From a virus (taxonomy: Duplodnaviria > Caudoviricetes): a stretch of DNA of 64,000 bases. The notes under the pieces are model-generated. The model worked only from the letters and a program-made list of their open reading frames with translations. It ran no database searches and had not been told where the DNA came from. A program made the position numbers and the translations under genes. The DNA lies in the IMG/VR virus record IMGVR_UViG_3300032233_002382, positions 224,001-288,000 of that record; one strand, given 5' to 3'. Shown one piece after another: positions 1 through 35,031 of the stretch (the stretch's first letter is position 1; each line of letters begins with the position of its first letter).

Positions 1-3000
1 GAGCAGCAAGGCTTATCGAGTTCGTCGAATCCGCCACGAAGTGGCTATTCGTGTTTACACGGTGAGCTTCGTATGCTGAACGGATATCATTCAGGAGGTA
101 GAAGATAGCATCCTGGCTCTTGATGGTTCCGCCGCTTGTATAAGCGCCCACAAACGTTGATCCAACCAGGTCAAACGTGGTCAGACCAGTCGACGTAATC
201 TGGAATGTCCCATTGGCGTTGGTCGTAAGACCACCAGTTCCAACTACGCCCGAGATATTCACCCAACGACCGGTGGCTAAACCATGGTTGGCGGTCGTCG
301 TAACTGCGATTAGTCCAGAGCCATTGTTAGCCATTGAGCTAACAGCGAACGGAGTTAAAGTACCTACATCGAATGCCGTATTGCTTGTGGAAACGACATT
401 GGTCGAATCATCGATACCGTGGGCACCTAACTGTAGCAAGTGCGAGTTGTACTTGGTCTGGATCAAGTGTGCTAACGACAGAGCGCTCGATAAATCAGTC
501 GGAGTCGAAAAAGCAAAACCGTTAGCGGTGTCGCTCGTGTTGTGGACGCCGGACTGAGTAAGGTGTGCGTTGATCTTAGTGGCTAGTTCATTAAGCAGTG
601 TTATCGACGTGCTTAGGTTAGTCGCGACAGGCGAACTTATCGTGTTGGTAGTATCAGCGTTCGCGTGTAAGGTCGCACTGGTGCGGTGATTTGAATTGTA
701 GTTCGTACGCAGCTCGTTTGCTAGAACCACGAGCGATGCCTCTAAAGCGGCGACGCTGGAGGAAGCTGCGAAAGCGGCAGTCGCAGAGTATGAATCGTTA
801 ATGGCGTCTACCACCTGCTGGGCAGTAACGCTCGATCCAAGAGGCAACGTGGTCTGCCAGTCCTGACCATCGACGTTCAGGGCAAGACCATTATTAAGAG
901 CAGTAATCTTGAAGTTACCAGTGTTGCTCGACACAACCACAGCGTTTTGATTCAGGGCATCGGACGAACCGTAGCTTGAGGCTATAGTTAGACCTAAAGC
1001 GGTCGAAGCGTCAGAGTCACCGGGGTTTACTGGCATCACCAGAACCCGAGCAACTAGACCGCCGCCGATACCGGACGGCAAAGAGCCGGAGTTACGGCCC
1101 TTGATCTTTAGGATAGCCTCCGAACCATATAGGACTACTGAAGCCAGGTTATTAGGAGCGGTCGACGCGAAAGTGCCGGTTCCGTCGGTGTGAACCGTAA
1201 TATCGGCGTCAATAGCGGAGTTTATGGCAGAAGCGACGGAAGTTAGAGACGTGAGCGAAGCTAAGTTCACGTCAATTTCCACACCGTCAACATCTAACAT
1301 TAGATGGTCAGTGCTTAGCAGCGCCAAGCTCGCATCGATGGGCTGTCCTAGTAGTACAGCAGGGAATGAGACTCCAAGGTCCGTAGCAGTGCTTATTCCA
1401 TCGATCACGGCAGTTCCGAAAATTCTAGAGGCCGTGTAGATGTTATATGGGCCAGCAAGAGCAGAAGTAATAGAAGCGTGGGTAGCAGGCTCAAGCGCGT
1501 TATTGAAAGTGATAGTAACGGTCTCAGCAACCGGATTGCCGTCACCAGAATAGAGAGCGTCAGGGTTTGTCTCAACGCCAGACGGCCAATTGATCGTCTG
1601 CGATAACCCCGTGACTACACCGAACCGCACGTTATAAAGCGGGAGAGCCGTGTTGCGGCTCGAGACCATCGAGTACTGACCGATTCCGGAGGGTCCTGGA
1701 GTGATAACAGACAGCGTGTAGGTGACGTTATCCTGGATCCGGTTATAGTAATAGGTCGCGTAAACTTTGTAATCAGCCGGAACAGGATTCCGGAGTGTAA
1801 TCGTGCGGTCGATTACCTCGAGAACTTCAACTGCTCCCTTGGCAAACGCATCACGCCACGTCTTGCCAACGTACGCCACAACGAGATTCGGATTGGTGGT
1901 ACGAAGATCCTGGCGACCATTCGTGACCTGGTTAAAATAGGAGACAGACAGAGGAGTGTCACGACCATTGCCAGTGGTCGGCACATTGGCCAAGCGCCAC
2001 TTGCTCAGGTCGTTCGTCGAAACCAGGCTAAGCTCTTCGCCGAATATACGGTTATCGACGAGCATGCCAGACATCTGTACACTGTCGAAGGCTACATTGC
2101 CGATAGTGCTGCCGGTGGTGATGTTATAGGCAGCACCCCAGTAGATCTTCGACTGATCAGCGTCGTTCAATACAACGTAGTCAGCGCCCTGCTTATAAGA
2201 GGCGTCCCCAGGGCCGATGCCAACGTTGAGAACATTTGTGATATTACTGTTCGGCAGATAATCGAACGTGTCCTGCCACGGGTTGTACCAGTACTCAACG
2301 CTCACGGTGGAACCAGCTACCGGGGCGAATGGTAGAACAACAGAGCGGGTGGCACCGTCGACAGACACCGGAGTCACCGGCACGTTATCGACGAGCACAC
2401 GAACATCAGCCACGCTCGTGGTCGTACGGCCCTCATCTGAACCATCGACAATTGGTCCATTGAACACGACGAAGGTCTTATTTCGGGTGGTCGTCTGAAG
2501 AGCATTGAATCCAAAAGCGCCGTTCGCGCTACCATTACCGATCTTAAGCTGACCGGTAGTGGTAAGCCCTAAGTGAGAAAGACCTTCGGCGTCAGTGCTA
2601 GCATAAGCAGTTAGACCGGTTATGCCCTTCGAATTGATTTCGGATACGAGCTGGCTAACAGTGCGAGCGCTACCGGCTGTTAGAACGACCGATGTAACGG
2701 TCGCACTATCGTTGATGAAGAGCTCGAGTGTGTTGGTGGAAGAACCGATGCTGTAAGTAGTCGCAACAGGAGCCACGATGACGGCGGAGCCAGGCGAAAC
2801 CTGTTCAGAAACGTCGTCCGTCACTCGAGTGTCTTTGCGACGGAAGTAGTAGTTCACCGTCACGAAATCCGACTCAGAAGGAGGGACGATGAGCGAAATG
2901 ATGCCGTGGGCACCGTCGACCGCACCAACCGCAACCGGCTCACCGTTGACCGACACAGACACAAACTGAGTGTCGTTGGTCGGGCTGGCATTTAATCCAT

Positions 3001-3310
3001 TGCTCGAGACAATGGGATAATTCCTGACGCGAAAACTAAACTTATTCCCATCGGTCGGACCTAGAGTCGGGTTCGCGAAGGTACCAGACACCACCCAATG
3101 GGATGATACGTCTTCTCCGAAAATAGGCGTATTGGCTTGGCTACTCGAACCACGAATCATCTCGATATTAGACTGGAGAATACTTTCCTTACCAGTCCCG
3201 ATGAAAACGGGGATTCTAAGTCCGGCTATCAGATTTCCGACGACTGGCTCGATTAGAGTAGTCGTATAAACACCGGGAGGAGCATAAGTGGAAAAAGGTC
3301 CGATAGCCAT
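1..3310 (-). CDS. Large contractile tail sheath protein (partial, runs off left end; missing from ORF track)
   Basis: ATG at 3310 with SD GGAGA. My translation starts MAIGPFSTYAPPGVYTTTLIEPVVGNLIAGLRIPVFIGTG, the PGVY...PxFIG N-terminus typical of sheath proteins. The track reports no minus-strand ORF here, consistent with an unstopped frame of >1100 codons. Confidence 0.75.
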   Translation of the reverse strand, partial: MAIGPFSTYAPPGVYTTTLIEPVVGNLIAGLRIPVFIGTGKESILQSNIEMIRGSSSQANTPIFGEDVSSHWVVSGTFANPTLGPTDGNKFSFRVRNYPIVSSNGLNASPTNDTQFVSVSVNGEPVAVGAVDGAHGIISLIVPPSESDFVTVNYYFRRKDTRVTDDVSEQVSPGSAVIVAPVATTYSIGSSTNTLELFINDSATVTSVVLTAGSARTVSQLVSEINSKGITGLTAYASTDAEGLSHLGLTTTGQLKIGNGSANGAFGFNALQTTTRNKTFVVFNGPIVDGSDEGRTTTSVADVRVLVDNVPVTPVSVDGATRSVVLPFAPVAGSTVSVEYWYNPWQDTFDYLPNSNITNVLNVGIGPGDASYKQGADYVVLNDADQSKIYWGAAYNITTGSTIGNVAFDSVQMSGMLVDNRIFGEELSLVSTNDLSKWRLANVPTTGNGRDTPLSVSYFNQVTNGRQDLRTTNPNLVVAYVGKTWRDAFAKGAVEVLEVIDRTITLRNPVPADYKVYATYYYNRIQDNVTYTLSVITPGPSGIGQYSMVSSRNTALPLYNVRFGVVTGLSQTINWPSGVETNPDALYSGDGNPVAETVTITFNNALEPATHASITSALAGPYNIYTASRIFGTAVIDGISTATDLGVSFPAVLLGQPIDASLALLSTDHLMLDVDGVEIDVNLASLTSLTSVASAINSAIDADITVHTDGTGTFASTAPNNLASVVLYGSEAILKIKGRNSGSLPSGIGGGLVARVLVMPVNPGDSDASTALGLTIASSYGSSDALNQNAVVVSSNTGNFKITALNNGLALNVDGQDWQTTLPLGSSVTAQQVVDAINDSYSATAAFAASSSVAALEASLVVLANELRTNYNSNHRTSATLHANADTTNTISSPVATNLSTSITLLNELATKINAHLTQSGVHNTSDTANGFAFSTPTDLSSALSLAHLIQTKYNSHLLQLGAHGIDDSTNVVSTSNTAFDVGTLTPFAVSSMANNGSGLIAVTTTANHGLATGRWVNISGVVGTGGLTTNANGTFQITSTGLTTFDLVGSTFVGAYTSGGTIKSQDAIFYLLNDIRSAYEAHRVNTNSHFVADSTNSISLAA

Positions 3311-3489
3311 TATTTTCTCCTGATTCGAAGTATCTAACGAATCTAGGTCTTGTCTGGTCTAAATATACTTAAGTCTATGTCTGATCTACAGCTCTCATCA
3401 AACATAGGGAGGCTATTGAAAGCCGACCAACCCAAGTATAAGGAGATCCGACCTAGTGTCACATTAAAGCGGAAAAATAAAATTTCAAA

Positions 3490-3927
3490 TCATTCGTCAG
3501 ATTTTATAGATTTCTTAAAGGTCCCAATCCCATCTTCTCGAGTCTTTAACACAGATTTATCTACAGCAGAATAAGAACCGTCTGAATTGCTTGCAATCGC
3601 ATTGGTATTCAGTGACTTTCGAGCTTCATTTATACTCTTCTGCCGTTCCTTAATCATACCCCATTTTTTCTCGGAGCTTCTTGCAACCGCTTTATCTAGA
3701 GTCGGGTAATCAAGATCATGTACACCCGAGTTGCCATGTACTCCACTAGTCCCTCTTACATCACCTTTAAAGGAAAAACCAAATACCGAACCATGAAGCC
3801 GGGGCGCCAATAGCTTGCACTGAGGACATGGATGTGACTCAGAATATTGCTTTATCTCATCACGACTCATAAGTAGTTCTTCGAAATCAGCTTCGCACGT
3901 GGCACATCGATATTCATAGATTGGCAT
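3490..3927 (-). CDS. FmdB-family zinc-ribbon protein
   Basis: MPIYEYRCxxC...CPQC signature. Start moved from track TTG (3936) to ATG 3927. Confidence 0.75.
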   Translation of the reverse strand: MPIYEYRCATCEADFEELLMSRDEIKQYSESHPCPQCKLLAPRLHGSVFGFSFKGDVRGTSGVHGNSGVHDLDYPTLDKAVARSSEKKWGMIKERQKSINEARKSLNTNAIASNSDGSYSAVDKSVLKTREDGIGTFKKSIKSDE

Positions 3928-3932
3928 AAGTA

Positions 3933-3938
3933 ACAATA
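3933..3938 (-). promoter_or_regulatory. Putative -10 box (TATTGT) of leaderless transcript
   Basis: gTANNNT exactly 5 nt upstream of ATG 3927, no SD. Confidence 0.5.
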
Positions 3939-3942
3939 CGAA

Positions 3943-5139
3943 TCAAATGATCCGTTCATAACCAATCGGCTTGCCGATATTGTAAGAGAACCTACCTATC
4001 GGATCCATTTGGACTAAATCGACCACTGCCGACCCGTCCAGGTTACCTTTAGACAGTTCCTCTGAGGCGGATACCATTTCCGCCCTTGAAACGACAACTG
4101 GAAGCGGCACATATATGAACCAGTCTACGCGAAATCCTAGAGAGATATTACTATCGTAGTAATATTCGTCGGTTTCAGGGTTATATACATCTTCATTCTC
4201 TCCACCAGGAGAGAGGTTAATGAGTTCAAGCCCTTCAAAACCCAGGGTATTCTGACGTTCAAGTATCTTCATCACTACGTAATCAGAAAGCTTTTCACGG
4301 TCCTCAGAATCCTTAGAGAAGGCTATTAGATCGAAGTTTACCTCGAATCGTCCACCGTAGACATTCGCAACCTCAGTTCTTTCATCCGTCACAACGACCG
4401 CGAATTTATCATATAACTGGGAGCGATCTCCAAATGCTATTACGATGCCAGGAAGAATCGAGACGTTAAACTCTTCTTGCTTAAAATCAAAAGGCCCGAG
4501 TTCAGGCATTTTATATCGATAGTCAGCGGTAATATACGCACCTTCAGGCTGGTCCTTAAGGAATGTTATCAGGCCTGTCGATTCGTCTACTAGAAAATCA
4601 ACGTCGCGAATTAAAGCCTTTCGGTCATTTAACCAAAGTCTAATGCTATTTGGGTATATGTTATCGTGAGTAAGCTGAGCTTCACCGAAAGCCGAATAGT
4701 CGAACACGATCAAAGGTTCACCCGACACTGTTAAGTCCGGATAGACCACTACTTGACCGGGAATGTTCTTAGCTACATCCGGAATCGCAATCACTTCAAA
4801 CGTATAAACACCCGGAGCCGTGGGAAAAGAGCCACCGGGGGAAATAGAGCCCAAAATGTTATTGTTTTCTCTAATCCATTCAACCGTGGTGTTCGGAGAA
4901 TCAGAGACAGGCACTTGCATGCAAAAGGACTTCAAACGTCCCATAAAATTGTCGGCGGATAGGACAACCCTATCCGCCGACGTTCCATCAACTATTATAC
5001 CGCGAGAAGGACGTTCTTCAAATGAGTACTTATTTTGTACGTTTTGACTGTCTTCGCGATAGCGGGGGTGTTGATATAGTATCTCCCGTAATTCCTTGAT
5101 TATCCTACGCTTAGTAGCATTTGATAACCAAGAAATCAT
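3943..5139 (-). CDS. Putative tail-completion/terminator-type structural protein
   Basis: Lies upstream of the sheath. C-terminal FEVNFDLIAFSKD...EKLSDYV pattern resembles tail-terminator folds. Inference from position and pattern. Confidence 0.45.
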   Translation of the reverse strand: MISWLSNATKRRIIKELREILYQHPRYREDSQNVQNKYSFEERPSRGIIVDGTSADRVVLSADNFMGRLKSFCMQVPVSDSPNTTVEWIRENNNILGSISPGGSFPTAPGVYTFEVIAIPDVAKNIPGQVVVYPDLTVSGEPLIVFDYSAFGEAQLTHDNIYPNSIRLWLNDRKALIRDVDFLVDESTGLITFLKDQPEGAYITADYRYKMPELGPFDFKQEEFNVSILPGIVIAFGDRSQLYDKFAVVVTDERTEVANVYGGRFEVNFDLIAFSKDSEDREKLSDYVVMKILERQNTLGFEGLELINLSPGGENEDVYNPETDEYYYDSNISLGFRVDWFIYVPLPVVVSRAEMVSASEELSKGNLDGSAVVDLVQMDPIGRFSYNIGKPIGYERII

Positions 5140-5152
5140 GGTCTACACCCCG

Positions 5153-6154
5153 TTATTCCTCCATTTGAGCATACACAAGAAGCCCAGTACCAACGGCGGT
5201 CATCGGATCGGTGGCATGCCGAACTTCCGAAATCGGAATCGGAAATTTCGCCCGATGCTTCTCGAAACGCTCCGCGAATTTGGCCACAAATCCCTTAGCC
5301 AGACTTGTTCCGCCAGAGATAACGATAGGGATGGGTTTCGGGATCGTTATTTCATTCTTGCTCTTTAGGAACTGCGATATTATGCTCGAAATCGCATAAT
5401 CAATCAAACTTTCGATATAAACCGTTAGAGCCTCGGTCTCTCGGTTATTAGGCGACGCGATATCGACACCTGATTCTTTTAGAGCACAGATTTTAGCCGC
5501 TGTAGTCCCAATAGCTTTAGCGGCTCCCGAGTCGATCCAGTCACCACCACGACCAACGCTGAATTCAAGCGCCGACATCGCATTGTATGAAAGGCAAACG
5601 TTCGTCATACCGGAACCGAAGCTAATACCAAGACCGCTGAAATTCGAGCTGGCGCACTCCGAATAAATTACGGCAAGAGCCTCATTCACAGGCTCCGCAT
5701 TGTATCCGAGTTCACCGAGAATCTTACCCAGCACCTTGCTATGATAAGTTATGTCGGAGCCTGTAACGTCGATAGCGGATGCAGGAACTGAGTAGCAACA
5801 ACGCTCGTTAGGCTTCTTAGGATCGCCTAAAATCGTCTTCATCATAAGACCAATAACTTGTTGGGCATCGATCTCACCCGAAGCGACAATACCTCCAGCC
5901 ATGGGACGACGGGCTTCGCGATTAAATAAATTGGCAGTATCTAAAGCCGCGTCACCTACGACTAACAGTTTCCCGTCCATTTCGACATAATTCGTATTAC
6001 TGATTTTAAGCATCCGCTTGTTTTCGGGCGGAAGATCAATGAATGCATTCCGGATGCGTGCGGTAGTGACGTTTGATCCGGACTTTCTGGCGCTAACGAA
6101 ATTCATCGTGCCAACGTCCAGACCGACTCCAAAAGACTCTGCAGGGTTTGACAT
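5153..6154 (-). CDS. Actin-fold ATPase (MreB/FtsA/ParM superfamily)
   Basis: Phosphate-1 GLDVGT, connect-1 NEALA, phosphate-2 SFGSGMT, adenosine ISGGTS, connect-2 DPMTAVGTG, all in the correct order over 333 aa; SD GGAGG. Confidence 0.85.
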   Translation of the reverse strand: MSNPAESFGVGLDVGTMNFVSARKSGSNVTTARIRNAFIDLPPENKRMLKISNTNYVEMDGKLLVVGDAALDTANLFNREARRPMAGGIVASGEIDAQQVIGLMMKTILGDPKKPNERCCYSVPASAIDVTGSDITYHSKVLGKILGELGYNAEPVNEALAVIYSECASSNFSGLGISFGSGMTNVCLSYNAMSALEFSVGRGGDWIDSGAAKAIGTTAAKICALKESGVDIASPNNRETEALTVYIESLIDYAISSIISQFLKSKNEITIPKPIPIVISGGTSLAKGFVAKFAERFEKHRAKFPIPISEVRHATDPMTAVGTGLLVYAQMEE

Positions 6155-6188
6155 ATCGCCTCCTAAACGAATAATACCGAACGAAGGT

Positions 6189-6749
6189 CTATTTTCGCTT
6201 ACGAAGCGATTTTAAAACATCAGTAGCTGAATCGATGTCGCTTCTGACGCTACTATCAGTTTGAATGTTTATCTTGGTTTCTATACCTTTTGGAACAATG
6301 TTTGATGGTATGAAAACAGGATCTGCGACGGTCGACTGATAGGATCCGACATTGGCCGCACTTAAGTGGGCGGGCAAATTAGAAGGCGTCGGAGATGTTG
6401 GAATATTCGATAAAGCGTCAGCGAGTTTCGAAATATTACTGTTAAGGGCATCTAGCTTATTATCGATAGATTTTAACAAAGTTACCTGAGGTTCTTCTTC
6501 GACTACCGGCTCTTCCTCAGGCGGTTTTTGATACTCAACGACCTTAGAATTGGCTGTTTTGGTAAATGACTTATCGCTATTAAACAACCTCAATGATATC
6601 ATGTGTCGCACCTGCTTCGCTTGGAGCGAACTGTCATATAAATGTCTAGGTATTACCGCACTATCCCCATATTTCTCAAGCCTCACACCAATATCAGAAA
6701 GATAAATGAGCTCTTGTGATTTATTTGTAATTAAATAACTAGTCATCAT
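6189..6749 (-). CDS. Hypothetical protein (N-terminus resembles shared anchor-like domain)
   Basis: 186 aa ORF coupled to upstream gene; LITNKSQELIYLSDIG N-terminus. Confidence 0.55.
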   Translation of the reverse strand: MMTSYLITNKSQELIYLSDIGVRLEKYGDSAVIPRHLYDSSLQAKQVRHMISLRLFNSDKSFTKTANSKVVEYQKPPEEEPVVEEEPQVTLLKSIDNKLDALNSNISKLADALSNIPTSPTPSNLPAHLSAANVGSYQSTVADPVFIPSNIVPKGIETKINIQTDSSVRSDIDSATDVLKSLRKRK

Positions 6750-7450
6750 TTCTCCAGAATCCCCATTATGGCCGGAGTGAATTCTTCGGCAATAAGCTGA
6801 TTTATTTGGTCGATAAATTTTGACATTATACCTTGAAAATCCCCCTTAGGATGCTTTTGAACGAATTTTGTGTTCCTTACAGTTCTTTGGACCGAAACAC
6901 GTAATTTCTTATCCACTACTTCCATTCCTCGAGGAGCAGTCGCTTCGAGTTCATGCTCTACGTACCTCTGACCGGAGTTCTTAACATTCGAATTACGTGT
7001 GCGGTCTGATGAAATTTTCCGGGCATCTCTCGGCATTTTTAACTTATCTTGTAAGGGCTTTCTAGCGTCATACCGACCGTTGATTCTTTCAGGCCGATTA
7101 TTTCGACCTATGAAGTATGACTTCACATATCCTTTCGCTTGCGATTTCGATTGTACTAAAGACGCTTTCTTCTTATCTTTAGCTGAGGTTTCGGGTCGGT
7201 TGTACCCCCTTGGAGCTTCGTCCGTGGTTGAATCATCACTAAGGCCTTCGGCATCGATGTTTATCTCGAACATTACTGCGTCATCTGCAAGATGGGCATA
7301 AACTTGGTAATCTTTTAAGTATTCAGAGTCGGAGAAGCCAGACTCATCCAATATCTTCTTTAAAGCTAAGAGACCCTTGACCGCAATCGGCTCATAAATT
7401 GACAGCATAATATCATCAAACGATGTCGGAAGAATGAGTTCAGGCTTCAT
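6746..7450 (-). CDS. Hypothetical protein, neck cluster
   Basis: 234 aa; ATGA overlaps with both neighbours. Confidence 0.55.
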   Translation of the reverse strand: MKPELILPTSFDDIMLSIYEPIAVKGLLALKKILDESGFSDSEYLKDYQVYAHLADDAVMFEINIDAEGLSDDSTTDEAPRGYNRPETSAKDKKKASLVQSKSQAKGYVKSYFIGRNNRPERINGRYDARKPLQDKLKMPRDARKISSDRTRNSNVKNSGQRYVEHELEATAPRGMEVVDKKLRVSVQRTVRNTKFVQKHPKGDFQGIMSKFIDQINQLIAEEFTPAIMGILEK

Positions 7451-8763
7451 CTTCTATAAGTATTTTCGAATACAGGGGTTCGACCACGAATTTCCCGCTC
7501 ATCCGGAATCGCCTGGCGTTCCGTCGTCATAGGGGTTGCGCTGCCTTCACCCGGAATTATATATCGAGTCTGCGGGATGACTAAGCTCGAAGTATCCAAC
7601 ACCGGAACCTTATACCGAATATCCGATTCATCTAAGTGAGAAATAGAAAAATGTTGTTGCAATTGCATCCCACGATTCGTTGGCATACGAACTGGACCTA
7701 GTCCATATCGATCACCATTCAATTTCACAATAAAGTCTCTCTGAGATAGGAGCGGACTTGGGCCGGTCCAAGTTTCATAATTATGCGTTAGACTTCTACC
7801 ACGGTTGCTTTGAGCAATCGATCGGTCCGCATCGTCCGGAGCAATAATTAAGTCGTATGGACCATCATAACCACCGATAATGCCCGTACCAAAACAAGTT
7901 AGACAGTCTGAAGCTGGCTGCTTATTTGTAAATGAATAACAACCGCACTTTGGTCCTACATATTTACGAATAAAGCATTTTACGCGTTCACCGCTTTGAT
8001 CTAGTATGAACTTATTCCGACGAATTGCTTCCCGCCAAATCCAGTCTAACTGTTCGATAGCGTTAGAATTAGTCGTGGTCGCTTTCTTGAGTTCAGTCTC
8101 GATAAGAGCACCATTCTCGTCATAAGCAATTGTAGTCACGCGATAAAACACGCGCTGATATAAGACAGTCTTGCTAACGGCATTAAAATATCTATACGAG
8201 GCCAATACGACCGAATCTAAGTTCGGCACGACGGACGGAACCATCTTTTGACTTATCACGTCAAAAGTCGGATTTGTTTCGATCACCACTTCGCCAGTTT
8301 GAGAAACAACCGATCTCACTTTAGCTTGACGACCGTCAATAGTGACATACATATTCGCGTCAATATCATCGGAATTGATAGCAGGCTGCAAGTAAAGCGG
8401 AGTGTTAACCGTTTTAAAGATCCAACGTCCCAGAGAGTCCGTCGGACCAACAGTGAGCCAATTTTTAGATACTTCTTCCTTAAAAACAGCTTTTACCTGG
8501 GTTCGATCCCGATAGAAATTCGCCTGAATTGGCGTGGCATTTAGTTTAATATAAGGACCGAATTGGGAATCAAAACTTCGATAAACGTTCACCCCGATTA
8601 CATTAAATTTCGTGTTCGCAGATAACTCTGCCGGATTAGACCACCAAATATCTACAGTATACTTATCAAATGCAGAAGCACAAGTAACCGTCAGAGGAGA
8701 CAGAGGTCTCTCCGGGTTAATGATCTCTAACGGTGATATAGGCCTATCGGGAGGTGACGGCAT
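7447..8763 (-). CDS. Putative head-tail joining/neck protein with Cys motif
   Basis: N-terminal FN3-like segment (DIWW...GVNVYRS); C-terminal CGC...CLTCFGTG motif; located in neck cluster. Confidence 0.45.
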   Translation of the reverse strand: MPSPPDRPISPLEIINPERPLSPLTVTCASAFDKYTVDIWWSNPAELSANTKFNVIGVNVYRSFDSQFGPYIKLNATPIQANFYRDRTQVKAVFKEEVSKNWLTVGPTDSLGRWIFKTVNTPLYLQPAINSDDIDANMYVTIDGRQAKVRSVVSQTGEVVIETNPTFDVISQKMVPSVVPNLDSVVLASYRYFNAVSKTVLYQRVFYRVTTIAYDENGALIETELKKATTTNSNAIEQLDWIWREAIRRNKFILDQSGERVKCFIRKYVGPKCGCYSFTNKQPASDCLTCFGTGIIGGYDGPYDLIIAPDDADRSIAQSNRGRSLTHNYETWTGPSPLLSQRDFIVKLNGDRYGLGPVRMPTNRGMQLQQHFSISHLDESDIRYKVPVLDTSSLVIPQTRYIIPGEGSATPMTTERQAIPDEREIRGRTPVFENTYRR

Positions 8764-8792
8764 CTTATTTTAGCCGTCGCAATAAGGCCCGA

Positions 8793-9071
8793 TTACTGGG
8801 CAGTATTATCTTCTTCTTTGAACTGCACAACTACTTCGCCGTTAGGACCGACGTTCACATCCTTGACGTCGGCAGGCTTAATTTTATTGTCTGACAGAAG
8901 ATCATCTATGATCTTCTGACGAGACAGATACATCGAATCGATGGCCTCGAGCATCTTTCGGGCTTTGAGCGTCAGTACAACATGCTCAGAAGACCAGTGA
9001 CTTATAGACGCCTCGAACTGCGTCAACTGGGCGAGAGATTCTTTAGAAAGCTGAAGTTTAGCAGTGGTCAT
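8793..9071 (-). CDS. Small helical hypothetical protein
   Basis: 92 aa; leaderless-type promoter upstream. Confidence 0.55.
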   Translation of the reverse strand: MTTAKLQLSKESLAQLTQFEASISHWSSEHVVLTLKARKMLEAIDSMYLSRQKIIDDLLSDNKIKPADVKDVNVGPNGEVVVQFKEEDNTAQ

Positions 9072-9076
9072 GATAT

Positions 9077-9082
9077 ACCATA
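9077..9082 (-). promoter_or_regulatory. Putative -10 box (TATGGT), leaderless
   Basis: gttcggTATGGT-N5-ATG(9071). Confidence 0.55.
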
Positions 9083-9101
9083 CCGAACAAATATCTTAGT
9101 G

Positions 9102-9740
9102 TTAGTCGTCTGAGGACGACTCGTCATCCGAATCATCATCCGAATCGTCAGACTCATCGAGCAGGTCTTCTAGAGATTCCGCTGAACCAGAAGACTCATC
9201 CATTGAAGATTCTAGGTCATCCGATTCGTTGTCATCGGAGTTCTCAGAATAATCTACCGACCCTTCTAAGTCTAACTCACTGCTTTCATCCACTTGATCC
9301 CCATAATCTTCGGAGAGTTCACCGGCATCAGAAGATTTCGATCCTTCTTCCTCTGAGGTATCGGTATCAGAACCATCACCTAGTCCAAATTCATCCGCCC
9401 CTAGATCGCTCTCATCTATTAAAGAACAGTCTATCTTAATGGGCAACACTTTTACTTCGGTTTTGTTTAACCCAAGGTCATCGGATACTACTTTCATACT
9501 CGATTCAATCGCACTTTGAAGCTCGGCTTTGAGCTTGGAGACAAGATCAGCTTTAGACACCTGTCCATCAAAAGTAGCATTTAACAACAATTCGACATTA
9601 CAAGCATATTCGGTAGTGGCAGAGGTAATATCCAATTCCGAATCGACATCATCGCCTACTTCTAATTCGTCCTGCGACTCGTCAATATCTTCCTCATACT
9701 GAGCTGCAATGCGACTAGCGATTCGATTTAAATGACGCAT
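9102..9740 (-). CDS. Highly acidic protein with N-terminal RIASRIA tag
   Basis: D/E/S-rich C-terminal half; start reassigned to ATG 9740 (MRHLNRIASRIAAQ). Confidence 0.65.
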   Translation of the reverse strand: MRHLNRIASRIAAQYEEDIDESQDELEVGDDVDSELDITSATTEYACNVELLLNATFDGQVSKADLVSKLKAELQSAIESSMKVVSDDLGLNKTEVKVLPIKIDCSLIDESDLGADEFGLGDGSDTDTSEEEGSKSSDAGELSEDYGDQVDESSELDLEGSVDYSENSDDNESDDLESSMDESSGSAESLEDLLDESDDSDDDSDDESSSDD

Positions 9741-9746
9741 AGTTAA

Positions 9747-9752
9747 ATTATA
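9747..9752 (-). promoter_or_regulatory. Putative -10 box (TATAAT), leaderless
   Basis: tgTATAAT-N6-ATG(9740). Confidence 0.55.
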
Positions 9753-9762
9753 CAAAAAGGAT

Positions 9763-9930
9763 CTATATATAGAACATCACAAGAACATTATAGATATCTT
9801 GTCGTTGTAAATAAGCCGCCCGCTTACATCCCCGGCACTTAGAATCAAGTCCGTCGGATTTAGATCGACTCCGAGCGAACGCGTGTAAATCCAGTGTTAA
9901 TTTGCATGTAGAACATATCTTCTGATTCAT
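9763..9930 (-). CDS. 55-aa CxxC...CxxC zinc finger resembling the N-terminal domain of HNH/EndoVII-type homing endonucleases (possible relic)
   Basis: Own translation: MNQKICSTCKLTLDLHAFARSRSKSDGLDSKCRGCKRAAYLQRQDIYNVLVMFYI*. Not in ORF track. Confidence 0.5.
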   Translation of the reverse strand: MNQKICSTCKLTLDLHAFARSRSKSDGLDSKCRGCKRAAYLQRQDIYNVLVMFYI

Positions 9931-9968
9931 AAAGCAAAATAATCACATTCGTCTTAGACAGACAATGA

Positions 9969-10880
9969 TTAAATTCCCAAAAACCTGCGAGGAGTTAAAG
10001 CGCCTCTGCCAACTGAAGGACCGAATGAGGACCTGATGCCGACGCCATATCTAGACTGCTGAATACCGCGTATAACTTTTACAGTCGCCTTCGCTCCGGT
10101 ATCAGCGTTAAGCATGTCTTTGAAACGAGTATCTATAGCATCCGCCATACTTTGATATTTCGAAGATTTTTCTAAATCAAGAGACACTCCACCGATAGAG
10201 TATCCAAATTCCTCAGCGGTCCAGTTAATCGATAGTGCCTGAAGAGCATAAACCATCGCCCCGGTAAGCACCAAAGAACGCCAACCAGCATTCTGCTGGA
10301 TCAACTGATCGATGGTCGCATAAAAAGTCCTAGGTGGGTACATATTAACAACATCGAGTGCGACCTTTAGGAATTCCAATAATTCAGGGTCTTCCCATAT
10401 ATACCCGAATACTCTATTAAATTGATTTACCGCTTCCTCCCCACTAGGGGGCTGGAAGTGATAATTTCGAGCTGGATTAGCGTCTCTAAGAAGAATTCTT
10501 AATGAACGAACAAGCTCAGATTCATTATTCGAGGCACCAGGGAGTGCTACGGGGGCCACGTCATTTGCTATAACGCAGAATTCTTGAACGACATTTGCGA
10601 ATGGTGAAGTGAGGTATTCCCTCATCTTCCATCTGATCCGGTAATCACCAATGTTCGCATCGATCGGGATGGTGAAATTAGCATAATACTCGCCGACTGC
10701 TGGGTTAACGGGAATCCGATCAGCAGGTGGGAGAAGGACTTCGACCCCCGTAGTGAAGTCGTATACATTATAAAATATCTGAGCGGCATTACGAGGCGTA
10801 CCGTCCTTAGACTTCAGGAATATGGACAGGCCGTTTGCGCGTCCTAACTGCTGGCAACGTTTGAATATGACACCGCTCAT
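9969..10880 (-). CDS. Putative head-tail adaptor/neck protein with N-terminal Ig-like domain
   Basis: C-terminal YSIGGVSLDLEKSSKY pattern typical of adaptor proteins; N-terminal GEYYA...GDYRIRW beta-sandwich. Confidence 0.5.
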   Translation of the reverse strand: MSGVIFKRCQQLGRANGLSIFLKSKDGTPRNAAQIFYNVYDFTTGVEVLLPPADRIPVNPAVGEYYANFTIPIDANIGDYRIRWKMREYLTSPFANVVQEFCVIANDVAPVALPGASNNESELVRSLRILLRDANPARNYHFQPPSGEEAVNQFNRVFGYIWEDPELLEFLKVALDVVNMYPPRTFYATIDQLIQQNAGWRSLVLTGAMVYALQALSINWTAEEFGYSIGGVSLDLEKSSKYQSMADAIDTRFKDMLNADTGAKATVKVIRGIQQSRYGVGIRSSFGPSVGRGALTPRRFLGI

Positions 10881-10894
10881 ATTAATACCCGCTA

Positions 10895-12379
10895 CTATAG
10901 GTCTACGAGCGATTCTAAACGATTTATTTGACGATTGAGTTCGTTCAGTCGAACATGCAGTATTTCACGGTCTTCATCGTTCTCAGGGATTTCATACTCC
11001 AATACTTCCTTTTCTTTAATAGCATCCTCGTATTGAGATCTATAAATCGAGTCCATCTGCTCCGTCAGCGACTGGATTTGATCAGCGTGCTGCTTGCGAT
11101 CCGAACCGTATAGGCTGTACATCTTCTTCTTAAGTGATTGTATCTCGGGTGTGTCGAAGGCATCTGGTGTAACATATTTCTTTTTGAATTCGAAGTCGCG
11201 AATTCTTTCCTGTTTCTTCTTAATACTTCTATCTTTAAGAGATCTACGTTTTTTAATAGAGGTCTCTAACTCAGGTCTGATATCTATGTCGTGTTGCTGC
11301 CCAACGTATTTAAGCATCAACATCAGCTTAGAAACCGCTGTGACCAACGCTTTTACATCAGCGGCACTAGTGTGACTTGCATCTTTATTTAGTATACCCA
11401 ATGCCGAGTTTACGTAGTCTAAATTATAGTAGTTTGGTTTACCGTTGAGCAGTTTAGAAAAACGATCGACAATATCGCGATCGTTGACTTTATCGATAAC
11501 AGAATCTACGTACACCTGCATGAACTCTTGAGAATCTAGGTTGTCACATTTCTTAAGGGCAGAATCATTGATACCGTAAATCCTGCAACGACGCGAAATG
11601 AACTCACGATCGAACGGAGCATTATGTGCTACTAAAACGACTTTATAACTGGACGAAATGCGACGCACAAATTCAATGAATTCTTCTAAAAGATCTGACT
11701 CGGGCTTAAAGTCCGGAGGCATCTCACTGGTGGGAATTTCAATGGCTGGGCCTAATTCACTCTCAAAATCTTTGGTCGGTTTACGTTCTAAAGGCTTGTA
11801 ATTGAGAGGCTTAGGCGGTAACGAGATATTGCGCTCGCTAACGAATCGGTCTAGTGGATAACGATTAAATTCTAAAATGGCTCTGACAGTCGGACCACCC
11901 CTGGCGGTATCAAGATTCTTTATCGTATCTTCTGTTAAATCCGCAGTTCCGTGAATATGGCCGAGGTATTCGGGTTTATATCCACCATGAGTCGAAATGA
12001 ACTCTTGTTCTTCCTCTTTAGTACGTTTTTCGATGAAATCTTTTAAACCAACAGCTACAGCTGAGACTTGAGTAATTTGCACGTTTGGGAGTTGGTTTGG
12101 TAAACCCGTAGTCTCAGTGTCATAGAATACGAATGCATGATTCGTAAATTTGCTAAAAATCGAGTCAAAAAGATCTGCGGCCTTTACCTTCCCGGAGTCA
12201 TCGACTGGAAGTTCATAAGCACTCATATGTGAACCCGAAGAAATCTTTAAGCTAATTGCTCGTAAATCTGCACGTGGTAAGGAGGCAATACTAGTGCCAT
12301 AATCGGGTCGTTCCATTATATGACCGACCCATTCTCGATTGCTAGAAAGGCTATCAGAGAGTTTGTTGATTTTTAACAT
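10895..12379 (-). CDS. DEDDh 3'-5' exonuclease (DnaQ/epsilon-like) with extensions
   Basis: ExoI YDTETTGL, ExoII AHNAPFD, ExoIII HTSAADV; start reassigned to ATG 12379 (SD GGGAG). Confidence 0.8.
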   Translation of the reverse strand: MLKINKLSDSLSSNREWVGHIMERPDYGTSIASLPRADLRAISLKISSGSHMSAYELPVDDSGKVKAADLFDSIFSKFTNHAFVFYDTETTGLPNQLPNVQITQVSAVAVGLKDFIEKRTKEEEQEFISTHGGYKPEYLGHIHGTADLTEDTIKNLDTARGGPTVRAILEFNRYPLDRFVSERNISLPPKPLNYKPLERKPTKDFESELGPAIEIPTSEMPPDFKPESDLLEEFIEFVRRISSSYKVVLVAHNAPFDREFISRRCRIYGINDSALKKCDNLDSQEFMQVYVDSVIDKVNDRDIVDRFSKLLNGKPNYYNLDYVNSALGILNKDASHTSAADVKALVTAVSKLMLMLKYVGQQHDIDIRPELETSIKKRRSLKDRSIKKKQERIRDFEFKKKYVTPDAFDTPEIQSLKKKMYSLYGSDRKQHADQIQSLTEQMDSIYRSQYEDAIKEKEVLEYEIPENDEDREILHVRLNELNRQINRLESLVDL

Positions 12380-25795: not shown

Positions 25796-27496
25796 ATGCA
25801 TGGTAGATCTATACCTCAATATTTCATTAGAAATCCACCTGAAGAACCAAGATATCAAGAAAGACTCAAGTTAGAGCTAAGTTGGTTTGAAAATACGGTA
25901 GCTGAAGACTACATACTGACCGTAGCTGAAATATGCCGCAACATTAGAGACATACCCCATACGATCAGGGGATCCGCTGGATCGAGCCTTGTCATATACC
26001 TTCTTGGCATCTCTGACATCGACCCAGTTAAATGGAATATAGCTCCAGAGCGATTCTTTCATCCGAAACGCAAGGATCTCCCCGATATCGACTTGGACTT
26101 TCCAGATATAAGAAGAGAAGAAGTATTTGACAGAATTCACCAGTTGTTCCCAAATCGAACAGCACGAATATCGAATCATATAACATACAAAGACAAGAGT
26201 GCGATTCGCGAGGCGATTCGTAGGTTAGGAGTTCGAAAAAAGCTGCCTCGAGGCTTTAAAATACATGAAGTGGTACCGGGTCGAGAGACCGATGCAATAG
26301 AAATAGCGGCAGATCTAAAGGGGCAAGTAAGAGATCTATCTCTACACTGCGGTGGAGTCATCGTGTTCGACAGAGAAGTTCCGCCAGACATTCGGATGAA
26401 AGAGAAAAAAGGCCAAATTAGAATCGATAAGTTCGAAACCGATATCATGAACTATTTTAAAATCGACATTTTGTCTAATATATCGCTAACTCAGCTCAAT
26501 GATTGTGATTCAAGACCAATACTAGAATATCCTCCTGAAGACGCAAAAATCACTGAAATGCTTAGCCAGGGAAAATCTTTAGGTATTACGCAAGCAGAAT
26601 CACCAGCATTTCAGAAAATGCTAAGAGCAGTCAAACCTAAAAGCGTAAACGATATGATAATGTGCATGGCGCTTATTAGACCGGCGTCAGCCTGGAGAGG
26701 TCATAGAGTTAACTTCATGGAGGAATGGAATAAAGAACGAGATACTGAATTCCTTATATTCGAGGATGACGCCACGAAAGTAATTCAAGAGATATCAGGT
26801 CTTTCGGGTCCCGAAGCTGACGCTCTTAGAAGAGCATTTGTTAAAAGAGACCACGAAGCCACTGAAGATTTCAGAAATCTGATATCACACCGAGATGATG
26901 CTCAGACGATCATAGATGATCTTGAAGCATTCAGGTCGTTCAGCATGTGCAAGTCCCACTCAGTTGCATATGGTCACGTGGCCTGGGCATTAGCGTGGCA
27001 AAAAGCACACAACACGAAAGCCTTCTGGAAGTCGGTGCTTAACCGAACTCAACCAATGTGGAGACCGTGGGTCCATGTCGAAGAAGCCAAGCTTGCTGGA
27101 TGGAAAGTGATCCCAGGAAAGAGACCATTTGCAGTGAAAGACGATACGCTTATCGGGCAAGAGTACGTACCGCAGTTATTTAAATCGGACCCATGGTGGG
27201 AGCTTAAAAAGTATAAAATGTGGTCAGGAAATGAGTTCCCTAAAGAGTGTTACCGAAGCGATGACGGAGAAAGAATTGAATTCTACGGAATAATCGGAAC
27301 GCACCGGATACTTAAGAGAAAAGATGGACAAGCAGTCACGTTTGCTACAATAGGAACATCGCCAGGATCATATGTAGACTTGATACTAGAGGGAGCTATA
27401 GACCTAAAGAGGTATCAAGCAATTCAAGGCAACGGTGAATTAGGGATTAAATTCGGCTCCGAATTTACGAAAGTCAAACAGTACTCTATACTTTAA
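25796..27496 (+). CDS. dnaE: Family C DNA polymerase (Pol III alpha-like), compact, lacking PHP domain
   Basis: RGSAGSSL...DIDP...ERF...PDIDLDF, HCGG, KIDIL and KSH motifs; only 566 aa. Confidence 0.85.
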   Translation: MHGRSIPQYFIRNPPEEPRYQERLKLELSWFENTVAEDYILTVAEICRNIRDIPHTIRGSAGSSLVIYLLGISDIDPVKWNIAPERFFHPKRKDLPDIDLDFPDIRREEVFDRIHQLFPNRTARISNHITYKDKSAIREAIRRLGVRKKLPRGFKIHEVVPGRETDAIEIAADLKGQVRDLSLHCGGVIVFDREVPPDIRMKEKKGQIRIDKFETDIMNYFKIDILSNISLTQLNDCDSRPILEYPPEDAKITEMLSQGKSLGITQAESPAFQKMLRAVKPKSVNDMIMCMALIRPASAWRGHRVNFMEEWNKERDTEFLIFEDDATKVIQEISGLSGPEADALRRAFVKRDHEATEDFRNLISHRDDAQTIIDDLEAFRSFSMCKSHSVAYGHVAWALAWQKAHNTKAFWKSVLNRTQPMWRPWVHVEEAKLAGWKVIPGKRPFAVKDDTLIGQEYVPQLFKSDPWWELKKYKMWSGNEFPKECYRSDDGERIEFYGIIGTHRILKRKDGQAVTFATIGTSPGSYVDLILEGAIDLKRYQAIQGNGELGIKFGSEFTKVKQYSIL

Positions 27497-35030: not shown

Positions 35031-35031
35031 T

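Follow-up and report, generated by a model that had tools for sequence, protein, structure and literature searches.

Related cytoskeletal systems and comparison with the phage locus

The actin-like protein Volactin of Haloferax volcanii (VolA, HVO_2015) forms dynamically unstable filaments in vivo, as seen with VolA-msfGFP, and its role in Haloferax lies in the transition from rod-shaped to disk-shaped cells (PMC10869688). Among the actins of mobile elements, AlpAC of the Corynebacterium glutamicum prophage CGP3 is encoded in an early operon, in which a co-oriented adaptor encoded upstream binds the actin (PMC4446434). In the nucleus-forming jumbo phages of the Chimalliviridae, PhuZ not only positions the phage nucleus but also delivers capsids (PMC7950403; see also PMC9067925).

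In this study, an actin gene was analyzed that lies in a stretch of 64,000 nucleotides (the window) belonging to the 308-kb IMG/VR record of an uncultured phage. With VolA and the other haloarchaeal Volactins, the protein shares the family (PF25216), the S-x-G-x-G-M-x-N loop and a directly upstream gene whose product carries a similar helix motif at its end or within. It differs from VolA in that the phage copy lies inside a block of neck and tail genes and in a clade separate from the haloarchaeal proteins, that the phage partner comprises 186 instead of about 300 amino acids, with an N-terminal part without recognizable similarity, and that the rod-to-disk role has no obvious counterpart in a phage.

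AlpAC, ParMRC and Alp7AR resemble the phage locus because they also combine the actin of a mobile element with a co-oriented upstream adaptor; for the phage adaptor, docking on the actin is predicted here. We take this predicted docking of the adaptor tail in the cleft between subdomains IA and IIA to follow the same mode as in ParM-ParR. However, the phage actin belongs to the Volactin family and not to ParM/StbA or Alp, and its module has a late, structural location, whereas theirs is early and replicative. In addition, no DNA-binding domain was recognized in the phage adaptor with Pfam or PHROGs, and no centromere-like repeats were found at positions 1-12000. The PhuZ spindle is similar insofar as it is also built from a cytoskeletal protein encoded by very large phages, provided that volactin polymerizes as proposed below. 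It differs in its tubulin fold, and no tubulin gene was found in the 308-kb record, which is about 72% complete. Furthermore, PhuZ phages form a phage nucleus, of which the volactin locus gives no sign.

The actin gene and its assignment to the Volactin family

The actin gene occupies positions 5153..6154 on the minus strand (stop codon 5153-5155, ATG 6154-6152), encodes 333 amino acids and is preceded by an AGGAGG box at 6164-6159. An intact open reading frame lies exactly where the earlier note had placed it; the strand has to be corrected to minus. The protein matched the Pfam profile PF25216 (Volactin) with an E-value of 3.7e-78 and 263.7 bits, with residues 10-329 covering profile positions 3-321 of 321, and the genome-wide search gave the same result. 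Because this score compares with a curated cut-off of 35 bits and the match extends over the full profile, it is far beyond chance. Together with an AlphaFold2 (AF2) model of pLDDT 95.9, it bears out the earlier reading of a phage-encoded actin-fold protein, a putative ATPase. MreB, FtsA, ParM, Alp and MamK had been named as proteins for comparison; the nearest folds are indeed MamK, BeeR and MreB, but the family is Volactin and not generic MreB, FtsA or ParM.

PHROGs holds no family for the actin. Haloarchaeal members of the Volactin family are 42-45% identical to the phage protein, and phage actins are about 41-45% identical to cellular proteins. Clustering at 90% left 2357 relatives, many of them on contigs of 200-440 kb. 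In INPHARED, the gene occurred only in two uncultured huge phages, and no cultured phage carrying it was found there. Nowhere in the literature searched is the Volactin family described from phages. The protein is a phage-encoded member of this actin family.

All five actin-superfamily motifs that had been read from the sequence are present in the proposed order, namely phosphate-1 (GLDVGT, residues 11-16), connect-1 (NEALAVIYS, residues 157-165, including Glu158), phosphate-2 (GISFGSGMTN, residues 176-185), the adenosine motif (SGGTS, residues 280-284) and connect-2 (DPMTAVGTG, residues 316-324). Each has its counterpart in the alignment with MamK, BeeR and MreB. The phage actin retains Asp13, Gly15 and Thr16 of phosphate-1, Glu158 of connect-1 and the adenosine motif GGTS.

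The canonical Asp of phosphate-2 (DxGxGT) is absent. While MamK, BeeR and MreB possess VDIGAGTTD, IDIGGGTSD and VDIGGGTTE, respectively, the Volactin family reads ISFGAGMVN at this site. In a motif scan of 270 homologues, Ser occurred in every phosphate-2 variant recovered, and Met and Asn in nearly all; the S-x-G-x-G-M-x-N loop is also shared by all loci examined from haloarchaea and Planctomycetota (14 each). The substitution of Asp by Ser noticed earlier is therefore real, but its description as unusual does not hold, since Ser is the normal state of this family and does not set the copy in the window apart. Judged from the sequence, the gamma-phosphate chemistry appears to differ from that of the characterized actins, because Ser178, Met183 and Asn185 stand at the sites that Asp, Thr and Asp/Glu occupy in MamK, BeeR and MreB.

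Predicted structure and nearest folds

The AF2 model of the actin (pTM 0.93) showed the four-subdomain actin fold. In comparisons with VIA-align, it was closest to MamK (5ljv; Z 29.2, rmsd 3.0 over 294 residues), followed by BeeR (8r2n; Z 27.8), MreB (Z 26.4), F-actin (Z about 25.7) and crenactin (Z 25.3), and the model of the DnaK nucleotide-binding domain ranged below these filament formers (Z 24.7). Taken together, MamK (5ljv, 5jyg), BeeR (8r2n) and MreB (1jce, 4cze) are the closest solved folds, with rmsd values of 3.0-3.5 over 281-301 residues. The profile of the actin also recovered them from the PDB (MamK 1e-14, BeeR 5e-11, MreB 9e-8), whereas a phmmer search with the single sequence gave no match there, and MamK and MreB were reached by the profile only. 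The domain layout and the connect-1 Glu are shared with these proteins. However, the phage actin is only 16-21% identical to them, carries the Ser/Met/Asn version of phosphate-2 and has no magnetosome, cell-wall or membrane-binding context. All Foldseek matches were cytoskeletal or Hsp70-type proteins. In BFVD, no close viral structural relative was present; the best matches, e.g. Gp506 of Bacillus phage G and Hsp70 homologues, were 11-16% identical. From the family membership and the nearest structures we infer that the phage actin would polymerize and hydrolyze ATP.

Actin-fold homologues of Hsp70, such as the Hsp70h proteins of closteroviruses, serve in virion assembly of other viruses, and closterovirus Hsp70h proteins were among the structural matches in BFVD. 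The phage protein could accordingly be conceived as a non-polymerizing ATPase that acts as an assembly chaperone or as an ATP-driven factor of neck or tail completion, much as scaffolds of the Hsp70 or FtsA/PilM type do, with the upstream protein as its client or co-factor. The altered phosphate-2 motif and the location of the gene directly between neck-like and terminator genes are consistent with such a role. Nevertheless, it is clearly unlikely: the 333 residues form an actin-fold domain throughout, and neither a substrate-binding domain of the Hsp70/DnaK type nor any other extra domain is present. The nearest structures are filament formers (MamK 29.2, BeeR 27.8 and MreB 26.4 versus 24.7 for the DnaK model), and the same pair of actin and partner is found in cellular genomes, which have no virion to assemble. 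Moreover, the founding member of the family forms filaments in vivo (PMC10869688).

The candidate partner protein and its predicted docking

A protein of 186 amino acids, which the earlier note had missed, is encoded directly upstream of the actin gene (6189..6749, minus strand) and is the best clue to the mechanism. This candidate adaptor, proposed on the basis of an alignment of 14 loci and of the predicted docking, consists of a conserved N-terminal domain of about 60 amino acids, a Pro-rich linker and a conserved C-terminal peptide (DPxFIPSxIVP ... D.DxSxxALKxLRKKK), whose coding region stops 34 nt short of the actin start. Neither Pfam nor PHROGs assigned this protein to a family, and its N-terminal domain matched no DNA-binding family.

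When partner residues 128-186 were modeled together with the actin, the complex reached a score of 0.61 compared to 0.00 for the best control. Of 80 solved complexes, 58 attained the mark applied to this score, as did 2 of 110 mismatched pairs; this calibration holds only roughly here, as own alignments were used. The runs agreed in at least 86% of the contacts, and the pLDDT of the partner was at least 57. According to this prediction, the C-terminal peptide docks on the actin as a strand plus helix, with the helix in the cleft between subdomains IA and IIA, and contacts Tyr164, Ser165, Ala168, Phe172, Leu326, Val327 and Tyr328. Tyr164, Phe172 and Leu326 as well as the neighboring Gly324 are conserved throughout the family. 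ParR binds to ParM at this cleft, and WH2 and profilin occupy it on actin. The score may also in part reflect the memory of the model for peptide-in-cleft complexes of other actins.

Genes located directly upstream of the actin gene in Planctomycetota, haloarchaea and a Thermoplasmatales MAG encode a similar C-terminal motif. The likeness between the motifs of phages, Planctomycetota and haloarchaea is weak (hhalign E-values of 0.02, 4e-4 and 0.02; probabilities of 2-34%). In several relatives, one or two extra genes lie between partner and actin.

Gene neighborhood and synteny

The actin gene was found in a block with the order neck-like genes, a gene for a 234-aa protein, the 186-aa partner, actin, a tail-terminator-like gene, a Zn-ribbon gene and a sheath gene of 1793 codons. 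All neighbors lie on the minus strand, as the actin does, and the earlier placement of the actin among neck, tail-terminator and sheath genes, rather than with replication genes, is supported. The genes overlap at 7447-7450 and 6746-6749, and gaps of 34 nt and 13 nt flank the actin gene. As the stop codon of the 234-aa gene overlaps the start codon of the partner gene (ATGA, 6746-6749), these two are probably translationally coupled.

The downstream gene of 1793 codons encodes the tail sheath: residues 1445-1792 of the complete reading frame (L103:13929-19310) match phrog_2839 (tail sheath) with an E-value of 2.6e-33, and an E1_FCCH-like insert lies at residues 999-1064. Its N-terminal 1103 residues are encoded at positions 1..3310 (minus strand); from there the gene, which extends over G000:C1:221929-227310, runs off the start of the window. 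Between the sheath and terminator genes, a Zn-ribbon protein of 148 amino acids (3490..3936, minus strand; Pfam Zn_ribbon_8, E-value 4e-8, just below the cut-off) occupies a conserved position and is 41-52% identical in 18 loci.

The putative tail-terminator or tail-completion protein (398 aa; 3943..5139, minus strand) is encoded by a gene that starts 13 nt past the actin stop codon. It was recognized by Atlas features (SP10_terminator 0.91, with 174 shared features), by Atlas structure rows (Phage_tail_terminator_9, Tail_completion_gp17) and by a fold search with its AF2 model (pLDDT 74). This model matched neck chains of phage 812 (8qkh_G, E-value 1.1e-7; 8q01_M, 4e-7) and then tail-tube-fold proteins; the Foldseek probability was 1.00, but the TM-scores were low (0.23-0.32). 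On the other side of the actin gene, beyond the partner, the 234-aa protein (6746..7450, minus strand) has homologues of 26-37% identity at the same position in 15 loci, and no Pfam or PHROG match was obtained for it. Directly upstream of it is encoded a putative neck or head-completion protein of 438 amino acids with a conserved CxC...CxxC cluster (7447..8763, minus strand), which is 53-65% identical in 15 loci and is also encoded upstream of the actin in LR745208 and L022. Atlas structure rows, taken as leads, relate it to T4_neck-protein (TM 0.34) and, with residues 249-395, to Phage_HCP (TM by row 0.66). A putative head-tail adaptor or neck protein of 303 amino acids (9969..10880, minus strand) was assigned by synteny and, at the level of a lead, by Atlas features. 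Most of the families named by these features are those of head-tail connectors, adaptors or necks (Phage_Mu_Gp36 0.88, Phage_T4_gp13 0.84, HCP 0.82, Phage_connect_1 0.82, SU10_adaptor 0.82), with BppU_N (0.90) and Gp77 (0.88) in addition.

The profiles of the 438-aa, 398-aa and 303-aa proteins gave no PDB match by sequence, and in PHROGs the nine nearest neighbors had no family, except for a DNA-polymerase exonuclease located further upstream. When the same profiles were compared by hhalign with T4 gp14, gp15 and gp13, no match was obtained (probability ≤ 1%), so that the sequences do not support an assignment to the T4 type; the neighbor identities rest on the Atlas features and the fold search. 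The neck-like and terminator-like identities of these flanking genes are predictions only. Scans for Sigma-70-type promoters and for terminators remained at chance level (18 found versus 15.7 expected; 9 versus 6.4), and therefore no boundaries of transcription units were drawn.

Phage LR745208 (485 kb), a mis-binned MAG contig and 18 IMG/VR loci all keep the position of the actin gene, so that synteny across related phages is established and the actin is a syntenic core gene of this clade of huge phages, which occur at freshwater sites. In the 18 syntenic phage loci the actin is 62-74% identical, and in most of them its identity lies above that of every neighbor. The 303-aa neck-like protein (61-70%) is about level with it and higher in L014 and L016; the other neighbors range from 22-30% (partner) to 53-65% (438-aa protein). 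Where the actin is 53% identical, the neighbors reach only 34-44%. The actin thus ranks first or close to first in conservation within the block. Inteins interrupt homologues at four different sites, all of which lie in or near the phosphate-2 loop and the GGDW motif; the syntenic locus L019 harbors one of these inteins.

The position among neck and tail genes might also be explained if the protein were a structural component of the virion, i.e. of the neck or collar, that merely retains the actin fold. This appears extremely improbable, as the nucleotide-binding motifs are conserved under a selection so strong that inteins can reside at the active site, and the Foldseek matches are all cytoskeletal or Hsp70-type. 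Furthermore, we know of no actin fold in a solved phage neck or tail. In cells, the Volactin family is cytoplasmic and cytoskeletal (PMC10869688).

Another function that has to be considered is DNA positioning or segregation similar to that of ParM or AlpC. Here the cargo would be phage DNA, held by the adaptor, instead of virion parts: the filament would shift or anchor genomes under replication or ready for packaging, or a plasmid-like prophage. The layout, with a co-oriented adaptor before the actin and an adaptor end that binds the actin, corresponds to ParMRC and the prophage system AlpAC (PMC4446434), although this binding is a predicted docking in the phage. Huge genomes may need positioning, and Salactin, another haloarchaeal actin, aids DNA partitioning according to work cited in PMC10869688. 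The failure to detect a tubulin (PhuZ) gene points in the same direction, and is weak evidence because of the incompleteness of the record. We consider this function fairly unlikely, however, since the module lies inside the neck-terminator-sheath array and not with replication or early genes, whereas AlpAC is encoded by an early operon (PMC4446434). In addition, the N-terminal domain of the partner resembles no DNA-binding family of Pfam or PHROGs, and no iteron or centromere-like repeat array was found within about 3 kb: two short tandem repeats at chance level were detected at 1-12000, and no iterons at 3300-10000.

Origin of the phage volactins

In a quick IQ-TREE run, midpoint-rooted and without outgroup, the protein of the window fell within the family and formed, with 13 IMG/VR proteins, a phage-only clade with 100% SH-aLRT support, inside a clade of 45 metagenomic and phage rows (98%). 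The latter is sister to a Planctomycetota clade, so that the phage proteins stand beside and not inside it, and the haloarchaeal clade is separate. A recent transfer of a host MreB or FtsA, which according to the earlier note would have refuted its reading, is rejected because of the different family and the deep phage clade.

A host-takeover factor would be a further possibility, by which the phage actin remodels the shape or envelope growth of the host or disturbs its actin-like cytoskeleton, so that, for instance, an enlarged cell could yield a very large burst. In Haloferax, the transitions between cell shapes are controlled by Volactin (PMC10869688), and if the phage infects a planctomycete, its host could possess a counterpart, because the closest cellular clade, the Planctomycetota, carries the same module. 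Such a function is nonetheless very unlikely: the gene lies in the late structural block and not among early takeover genes, and the phage clade is deep and distinct, with about 41-45% identity to cellular proteins, unlike what would be expected for mimicry of a particular host protein.

Proposed function

We regard it as probable, with moderate confidence, that the locus encodes a volactin filament and an adaptor module, which are expressed with the late virion genes and position or organize assembly. The phage volactin would bind ATP and polymerize into dynamic filaments in the infected cell. The actin and the 186-aa upstream protein would act as a two-part module, in which the tail of the partner would dock on the actin and its N-terminal domain would hold the cargo. 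Since the module is packed in the array of neck, tail-terminator and sheath genes with overlapping or nearly abutting stops and starts, it is most likely made late and together with the virion proteins. The filaments would probably position or organize intermediates of virion assembly, or sites of head-tail joining, in the host of this very large phage. It should be mentioned that a location in a late operon is by itself no proof of a role in morphogenesis, and the functions suggested earlier, namely trafficking of capsids, organization of assembly or an ATP-driven factor of tail assembly, are hypotheses.

More tentatively, a large and globally distributed clade of huge phages may build its own actin cytoskeleton, in which a volactin filament and its dedicated adaptor, produced along with the neck and tail proteins, would capture capsids, tails or the sites of their joining and move or align them while very large virions are assembled. 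This would be the actin counterpart of the PhuZ spindle. The module of actin and adaptor, common to Planctomycetota and haloarchaea as well, would then be an ancient cytomotive cassette that passed between cells and viruses.

Phage-built cytoskeletons that have been studied in depth are based on tubulin (PhuZ), and the characterized actins of mobile elements (ParM, Alp7A, AlpC) serve DNA segregation or replication. Volactin, characterized so far in one haloarchaeon only, is a core gene of many phages of 200-480 kb. The family-wide loss of the phosphate-2 Asp raises the question how volactin-type actins hydrolyze ATP. If the phage volactin polymerizes, an actin-based system would be added to phage cell biology, and the partner peptide would be tractable for studying how filaments are coupled to their cargo, which would be relevant to the archaeal protein as well. 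In this case, the copies of Planctomycetota, haloarchaea and viruses would be linked as one module.

A Volactin-family actin with a serine-type phosphate-2 loop

The gene for P0001, an actin-fold protein of 333 amino acids, is located at 5153-6154, which agrees exactly with the ORF list, and is read on the minus strand (6154 to 5153) with an AGGAGG box four bases before the ATG. The protein covered the whole Pfam profile of Volactin (PF25216; E 3.7e-78; 263.7 bits at a cut-off of 35). The five actin-superfamily motifs, described in the earlier note as present in order, were confirmed with a family profile of 71 diverse Volactin members (alignment A1), which aligned them to those of MamK, BeeR and MreB. 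Asp13, Gly15, Gly180, Gly182, Asp208 and Gly281-Gly282 are invariant in this alignment, and Thr16, Glu158, Ser178, Asn185 and Asp205 are nearly invariant.

In phosphate-2, the segments VDIGAGTTD (MamK), IDIGGGTSD (BeeR) and VDIGGGTTE (MreB) stand against I-S-F-G-A-G-M-V-N in the Volactin family. The exchange of Asp by Ser, which the earlier note regarded as unusual, is real, but it is no oddity of P0001, as Ser is the rule in the family. A motif scan of 270 fetched homologues showed Ser in every recovered phosphate-2 variant and Met and Asn in nearly all of them; the Ser/Met/Asn loop was also present in the loci examined from haloarchaea (14) and Planctomycetota (14). Volactin, the founding member of the family, forms polymers in cells that assemble and disassemble rapidly (PMC10869688). 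From this we infer that the Ser-type loop is compatible with nucleotide turnover. A less likely reading of P0001 is that of an assembly ATPase which does not polymerise.

The AlphaFold2 model of P0001, calculated with A1 (pLDDT 95.9; pTM 0.93), matched MreB, MamK and BeeR in a Foldseek search of the PDB at E values of about 1e-14. VIA-align superimposed it on MamK (5ljv; Z 29.2, rmsd 3.0, 294 residues, 21% identity), BeeR (8r2n; Z 27.8), MreB (Z 26.4), F-actin (Z about 25.7), crenactin (Z 25.3) and a model of the DnaK nucleotide-binding domain (Z 24.7). The family profile detected MamK in the PDB at 1e-14; a phmmer search of the PDB with the single sequence found nothing.

Conserved position in a block of structural genes

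The block on the minus strand comprises, in order of transcription, the genes for a 303-aa protein (9969-10880; 61-70% identity to relatives), two small proteins, a 438-aa protein (7447-8763; 53-65%), a 234-aa protein (6746-7450; 26-37%), the 186-aa candidate adaptor, here called the partner (6189-6749; 22-30%), actin (62-74%), a 398-aa protein (3943-5139; 44-60%), a Zn-ribbon protein of 148 aa (3490-3936; 41-52%) and a long ORF (1-3310; 44-55%). The same gene order recurs in 18 IMG/VR loci. The position of the actin gene is conserved in these loci and also in LR745208 and a mis-binned contig, in which the order is kept with an actin of 53% identity and neighbours of 34-44%. Conservation in the block is thus highest, or close to highest, for actin. 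The 303-aa protein alone equals it, and has the higher identity in the IMG/VR loci L014 and L016.

Stop and start codons overlap at 7447-7450 and 6746-6749, and the actin gene is separated by 34 nt from the preceding and by 13 nt from the following gene. These overlaps and short gaps would fit a single transcription unit, on which simple promoter and terminator scans were uninformative. A hairpin at 4951-4981 (minus strand; 14-bp stem including 9 G-C pairs, loop of 3 nt, then AATTTTATGG) lies in the gene directly downstream of actin, some 160 nt inside the region coding for the 398-aa protein; it may act as an internal attenuator or a processing site, or be due to chance.

The neck and tail context claimed in the earlier note was supported overall, although to a different degree for the individual genes. 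Read past the window edge, the long ORF encodes 1793 amino acids (G000:C1:221929-227310 of the source record; L103:13929-19310 in a wider stretch of it). Its C-terminal 350 residues matched the tail sheath family PHROG 2839 at 2.6e-33, and no other part matched a sheath family; by this profile match, its assignment as a predicted tail sheath is firm. The protein is roughly three times the size of T4 gp18 and carries an E1_FCCH-like module at residues 999-1064. The Atlas features of the 398-aa protein matched SP10_terminator (0.91, 174 shared features), and its structure rows included Phage_tail_terminator_9 and Tail_completion_gp17. Its AlphaFold2 model (pLDDT 74) matched neck chains of phage 812 (1.1e-7 and 4e-7), followed by proteins of the tail-tube fold; because the TM-scores were low, the protein is called just terminator-like, a reasonably supported prediction. 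As neck proteins, the 438-aa protein, with T4_neck-protein and Phage_HCP among its lead-level Atlas rows, and the 303-aa protein, whose rows belong mostly to families of head-tail connectors and adaptors, are weakly supported. Sequence profiles of the 398-aa, 438-aa and 303-aa proteins found nothing in the PDB and did not match T4 gp13, gp14 or gp15. The Zn-ribbon protein is FmdB-like (PF09723), and its gene lies between the terminator-like and the sheath gene in 18 of 18 related loci. In this setting, an unlikely alternative is that the phage actin is a part of the virion.

Predicted docking of the partner protein

In the partner alignment A7 (14 loci), a conserved domain formed by about 60 N-terminal residues is followed by a proline-rich linker, a predicted helix and, at the very C-terminus, a conserved peptide, which reads D-P-x-F-I-P-S-x-I-V-P, about 15 variable residues and D-x-D-x-S-x-x-A-L-K-x-L-R-K-K-K. 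One or two extra genes separate partner and actin in some relatives. Complex prediction of actin (A1) with partner residues 128-186 (A7) in three runs gave a score of 0.61, versus 0.00 for the best control. Of 80 solved complexes, 58 attain the mark of this test, as do 2 of 110 mismatched pairs; this calibration holds only roughly because own alignments were used as input. The runs shared at least 86% of contacts, with a partner pLDDT of at least 57. Part of the pass may stem from likeness to solved peptide-in-cleft complexes of other actins. In the model, a helix of partner residues 171-183 occupies the cleft between actin subdomains IA and IIA and contacts Tyr164, Ser165, Ala168, Phe172, Leu326, Val327 and Tyr328, while residues 158-168 form an added strand beside actin residues 27-34. 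The Volactin family as a whole conserves Tyr164, Phe172 and Leu326, as well as Gly324 in their neighbourhood.

Inteins at the nucleotide site

In essential proteins, inteins typically sit in the best-conserved stretches of the active site. Among the homologues, several with lengths of about 470-710 aa (P0121, P0123, P0124, P0125, P0126, P0128, P0135 and locus L019:6-1961) are actins interrupted by an intein, in which Pfam detected Intein_splicing, Hint_2, LAGLIDADG_3 or HNH_3; the inteins carry a LAGLIDADG or HNH endonuclease, or are of the mini-intein form. The copy in L019 lies within the same syntenic phage block. Four insertion sites were seen, all within or close to the phosphate-2 loop and the GGDW motif: after IS-Y-G and before SGMT, after I-S-I-S and before GSGMT, after GMTN, and after the Arg of R-G-G-D-W. 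Such positions are consistent with the nucleotide site being under strong functional constraint.

Distribution and origin

The source record, an IMG/VR virus record of which the window is G000:C1:224001-288000, comprises 307,777 bp with an estimated completeness of 72% (CheckV). Further genes of the window are in keeping with a tailed phage of very large size: they include a collagen-repeat fibre, a protein with a depolymerase-type C-terminus, part of a DNA polymerase III alpha and a weak match to an HK97-type capsid. No tRNA genes were found. Several auxiliary genes are atypical of phages; they encode the fragment-sized DNA polymerase III alpha (25796-27496, plus strand; NTPase and finger domains only), a pyrimidine-dimer glycosylase (30289-30915, plus), a class I/II aminotransferase (30843-31994, minus), a C39-type peptidase (33834-34499, plus), a SpoU-type RNA methylase (34500-35069, minus) and an arginase-family enzyme (36273-37268, minus).

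A word-indexed search yielded 2357 relatives of P0001, the best 120 of which are all 63-84% identical, many on contigs of 200-440 kb; an exhaustive search of 50%-identity representatives yielded 1075 clusters, of which 330 scored below 1e-30. In INPHARED the gene was confined to two entries, the uncultured huge phages LR745208 (485 kb; 53% identity) and LR756511 (595 kb; 32%). No close viral relative was found in BFVD. The gene of LR756511.1 (L102, 10001-11023) is volactin-type and much more divergent, on a long branch, and none of the window's neighbours was detectable in its different neighbourhood; the family is thus present in two or more huge-phage contexts that are unrelated.

Prokaryote contigs (one genome per species) gave at least 561 matches, nearly all from Planctomycetota (41-45% identity) or Halobacteria (42-45%). 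Two matches at 53-54% were phage-clade actins from MAGs labelled 'Thermoplasmata archaeon' (L021, QMTU01000018.1) and 'Legionellales bacterium' (L022, PBLX01000019.1). In L022, neck-like, partner, terminator-like and sheath genes are present in phage order, so that at least this one is a mis-binned huge-phage contig.

In a quick maximum-likelihood tree (167 rows, midpoint-rooted, no outgroup), P0001 and 13 IMG/VR proteins formed one clade (100% support), nested in a 45-row clade (98%) of metagenomic representatives and LR745208. This larger clade grouped with a Planctomycetota clade (95%) at a partly unresolved fork, and the haloarchaeal proteins formed a separate clade (99%). Given this placement, recent acquisition of a host MreB or FtsA was rejected as the origin of P0001.

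Pairing of actin and a candidate partner in cells

The gene that immediately precedes actin in Planctomycetota ends with L-E-S-N-x-x-x-I-x-V-K-x-K-x-x-G-G-I-A-A-N-L-A-K-L-K-K-L-K-G-G-G and is sometimes fused with actin into a single long protein. The upstream gene of haloarchaea (about 300 aa) has V-D-x-A-V-A-x-L-K-G-L-Q-G-G and, after it, D-D-Q-x-A-A-L-x-E-L-R-E, and that of a Thermoplasmatales MAG (182 aa) ends with L-L-S-E-I-Q-K-E-K-K. In three hhalign pairings the motifs fell weakly into the same register (E 0.02, 4e-4 and 0.02; probabilities 2-34%). An adaptor peptide of common descent in phage, Planctomycetota and haloarchaea is suggested by these motifs. Planctomycetota variants (P0127, P0138, P0139, P0184; loci L024, L029, L032, L040, L088) include a tandem double-actin protein, proteins extended at the N-terminus by 300-600 aa of acidic or coiled-coil sequence, which is apparently a fused partner, and a 1160-aa fusion of actin, Wzz/GNVR and a ParA/MinD-type P-loop ATPase.

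A putative actin-adaptor module of huge phages

The best-supported reading is a putative module of an actin filament and its adaptor. Its closest analogues are ParM-ParR and the prophage system AlpC-AlpA (PMC4446434). In contrast to these, the phage actin belongs to another family, Volactin, and the module lies in the virion block and not among early or replication genes. It also differs in the absence of nearby centromere-like repeats, none of which were found in scans of window positions 1-12000 and, for iterons, 3300-10000. Positioning of DNA by the phage actin is a less likely alternative to the filament-adaptor reading, and remodelling of the host is an unlikely one. A tubulin gene was not found in the 307,777-bp record (72% complete).

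Tubulin alone is discussed in a review of jumbo-phage cell biology (PMC7950403), and the literature found on phage-encoded actins covered AlpC and the Alps of Bacillus plasmid-prophages only. The volactin papers examined concerned haloarchaea or general cytoskeleton biology and never tied the family to phages. The Volactin family and the logic of an actin with an adaptor are already known; huge phages as carriers, the neck and tail block as genomic setting and the putative adaptor itself are new.
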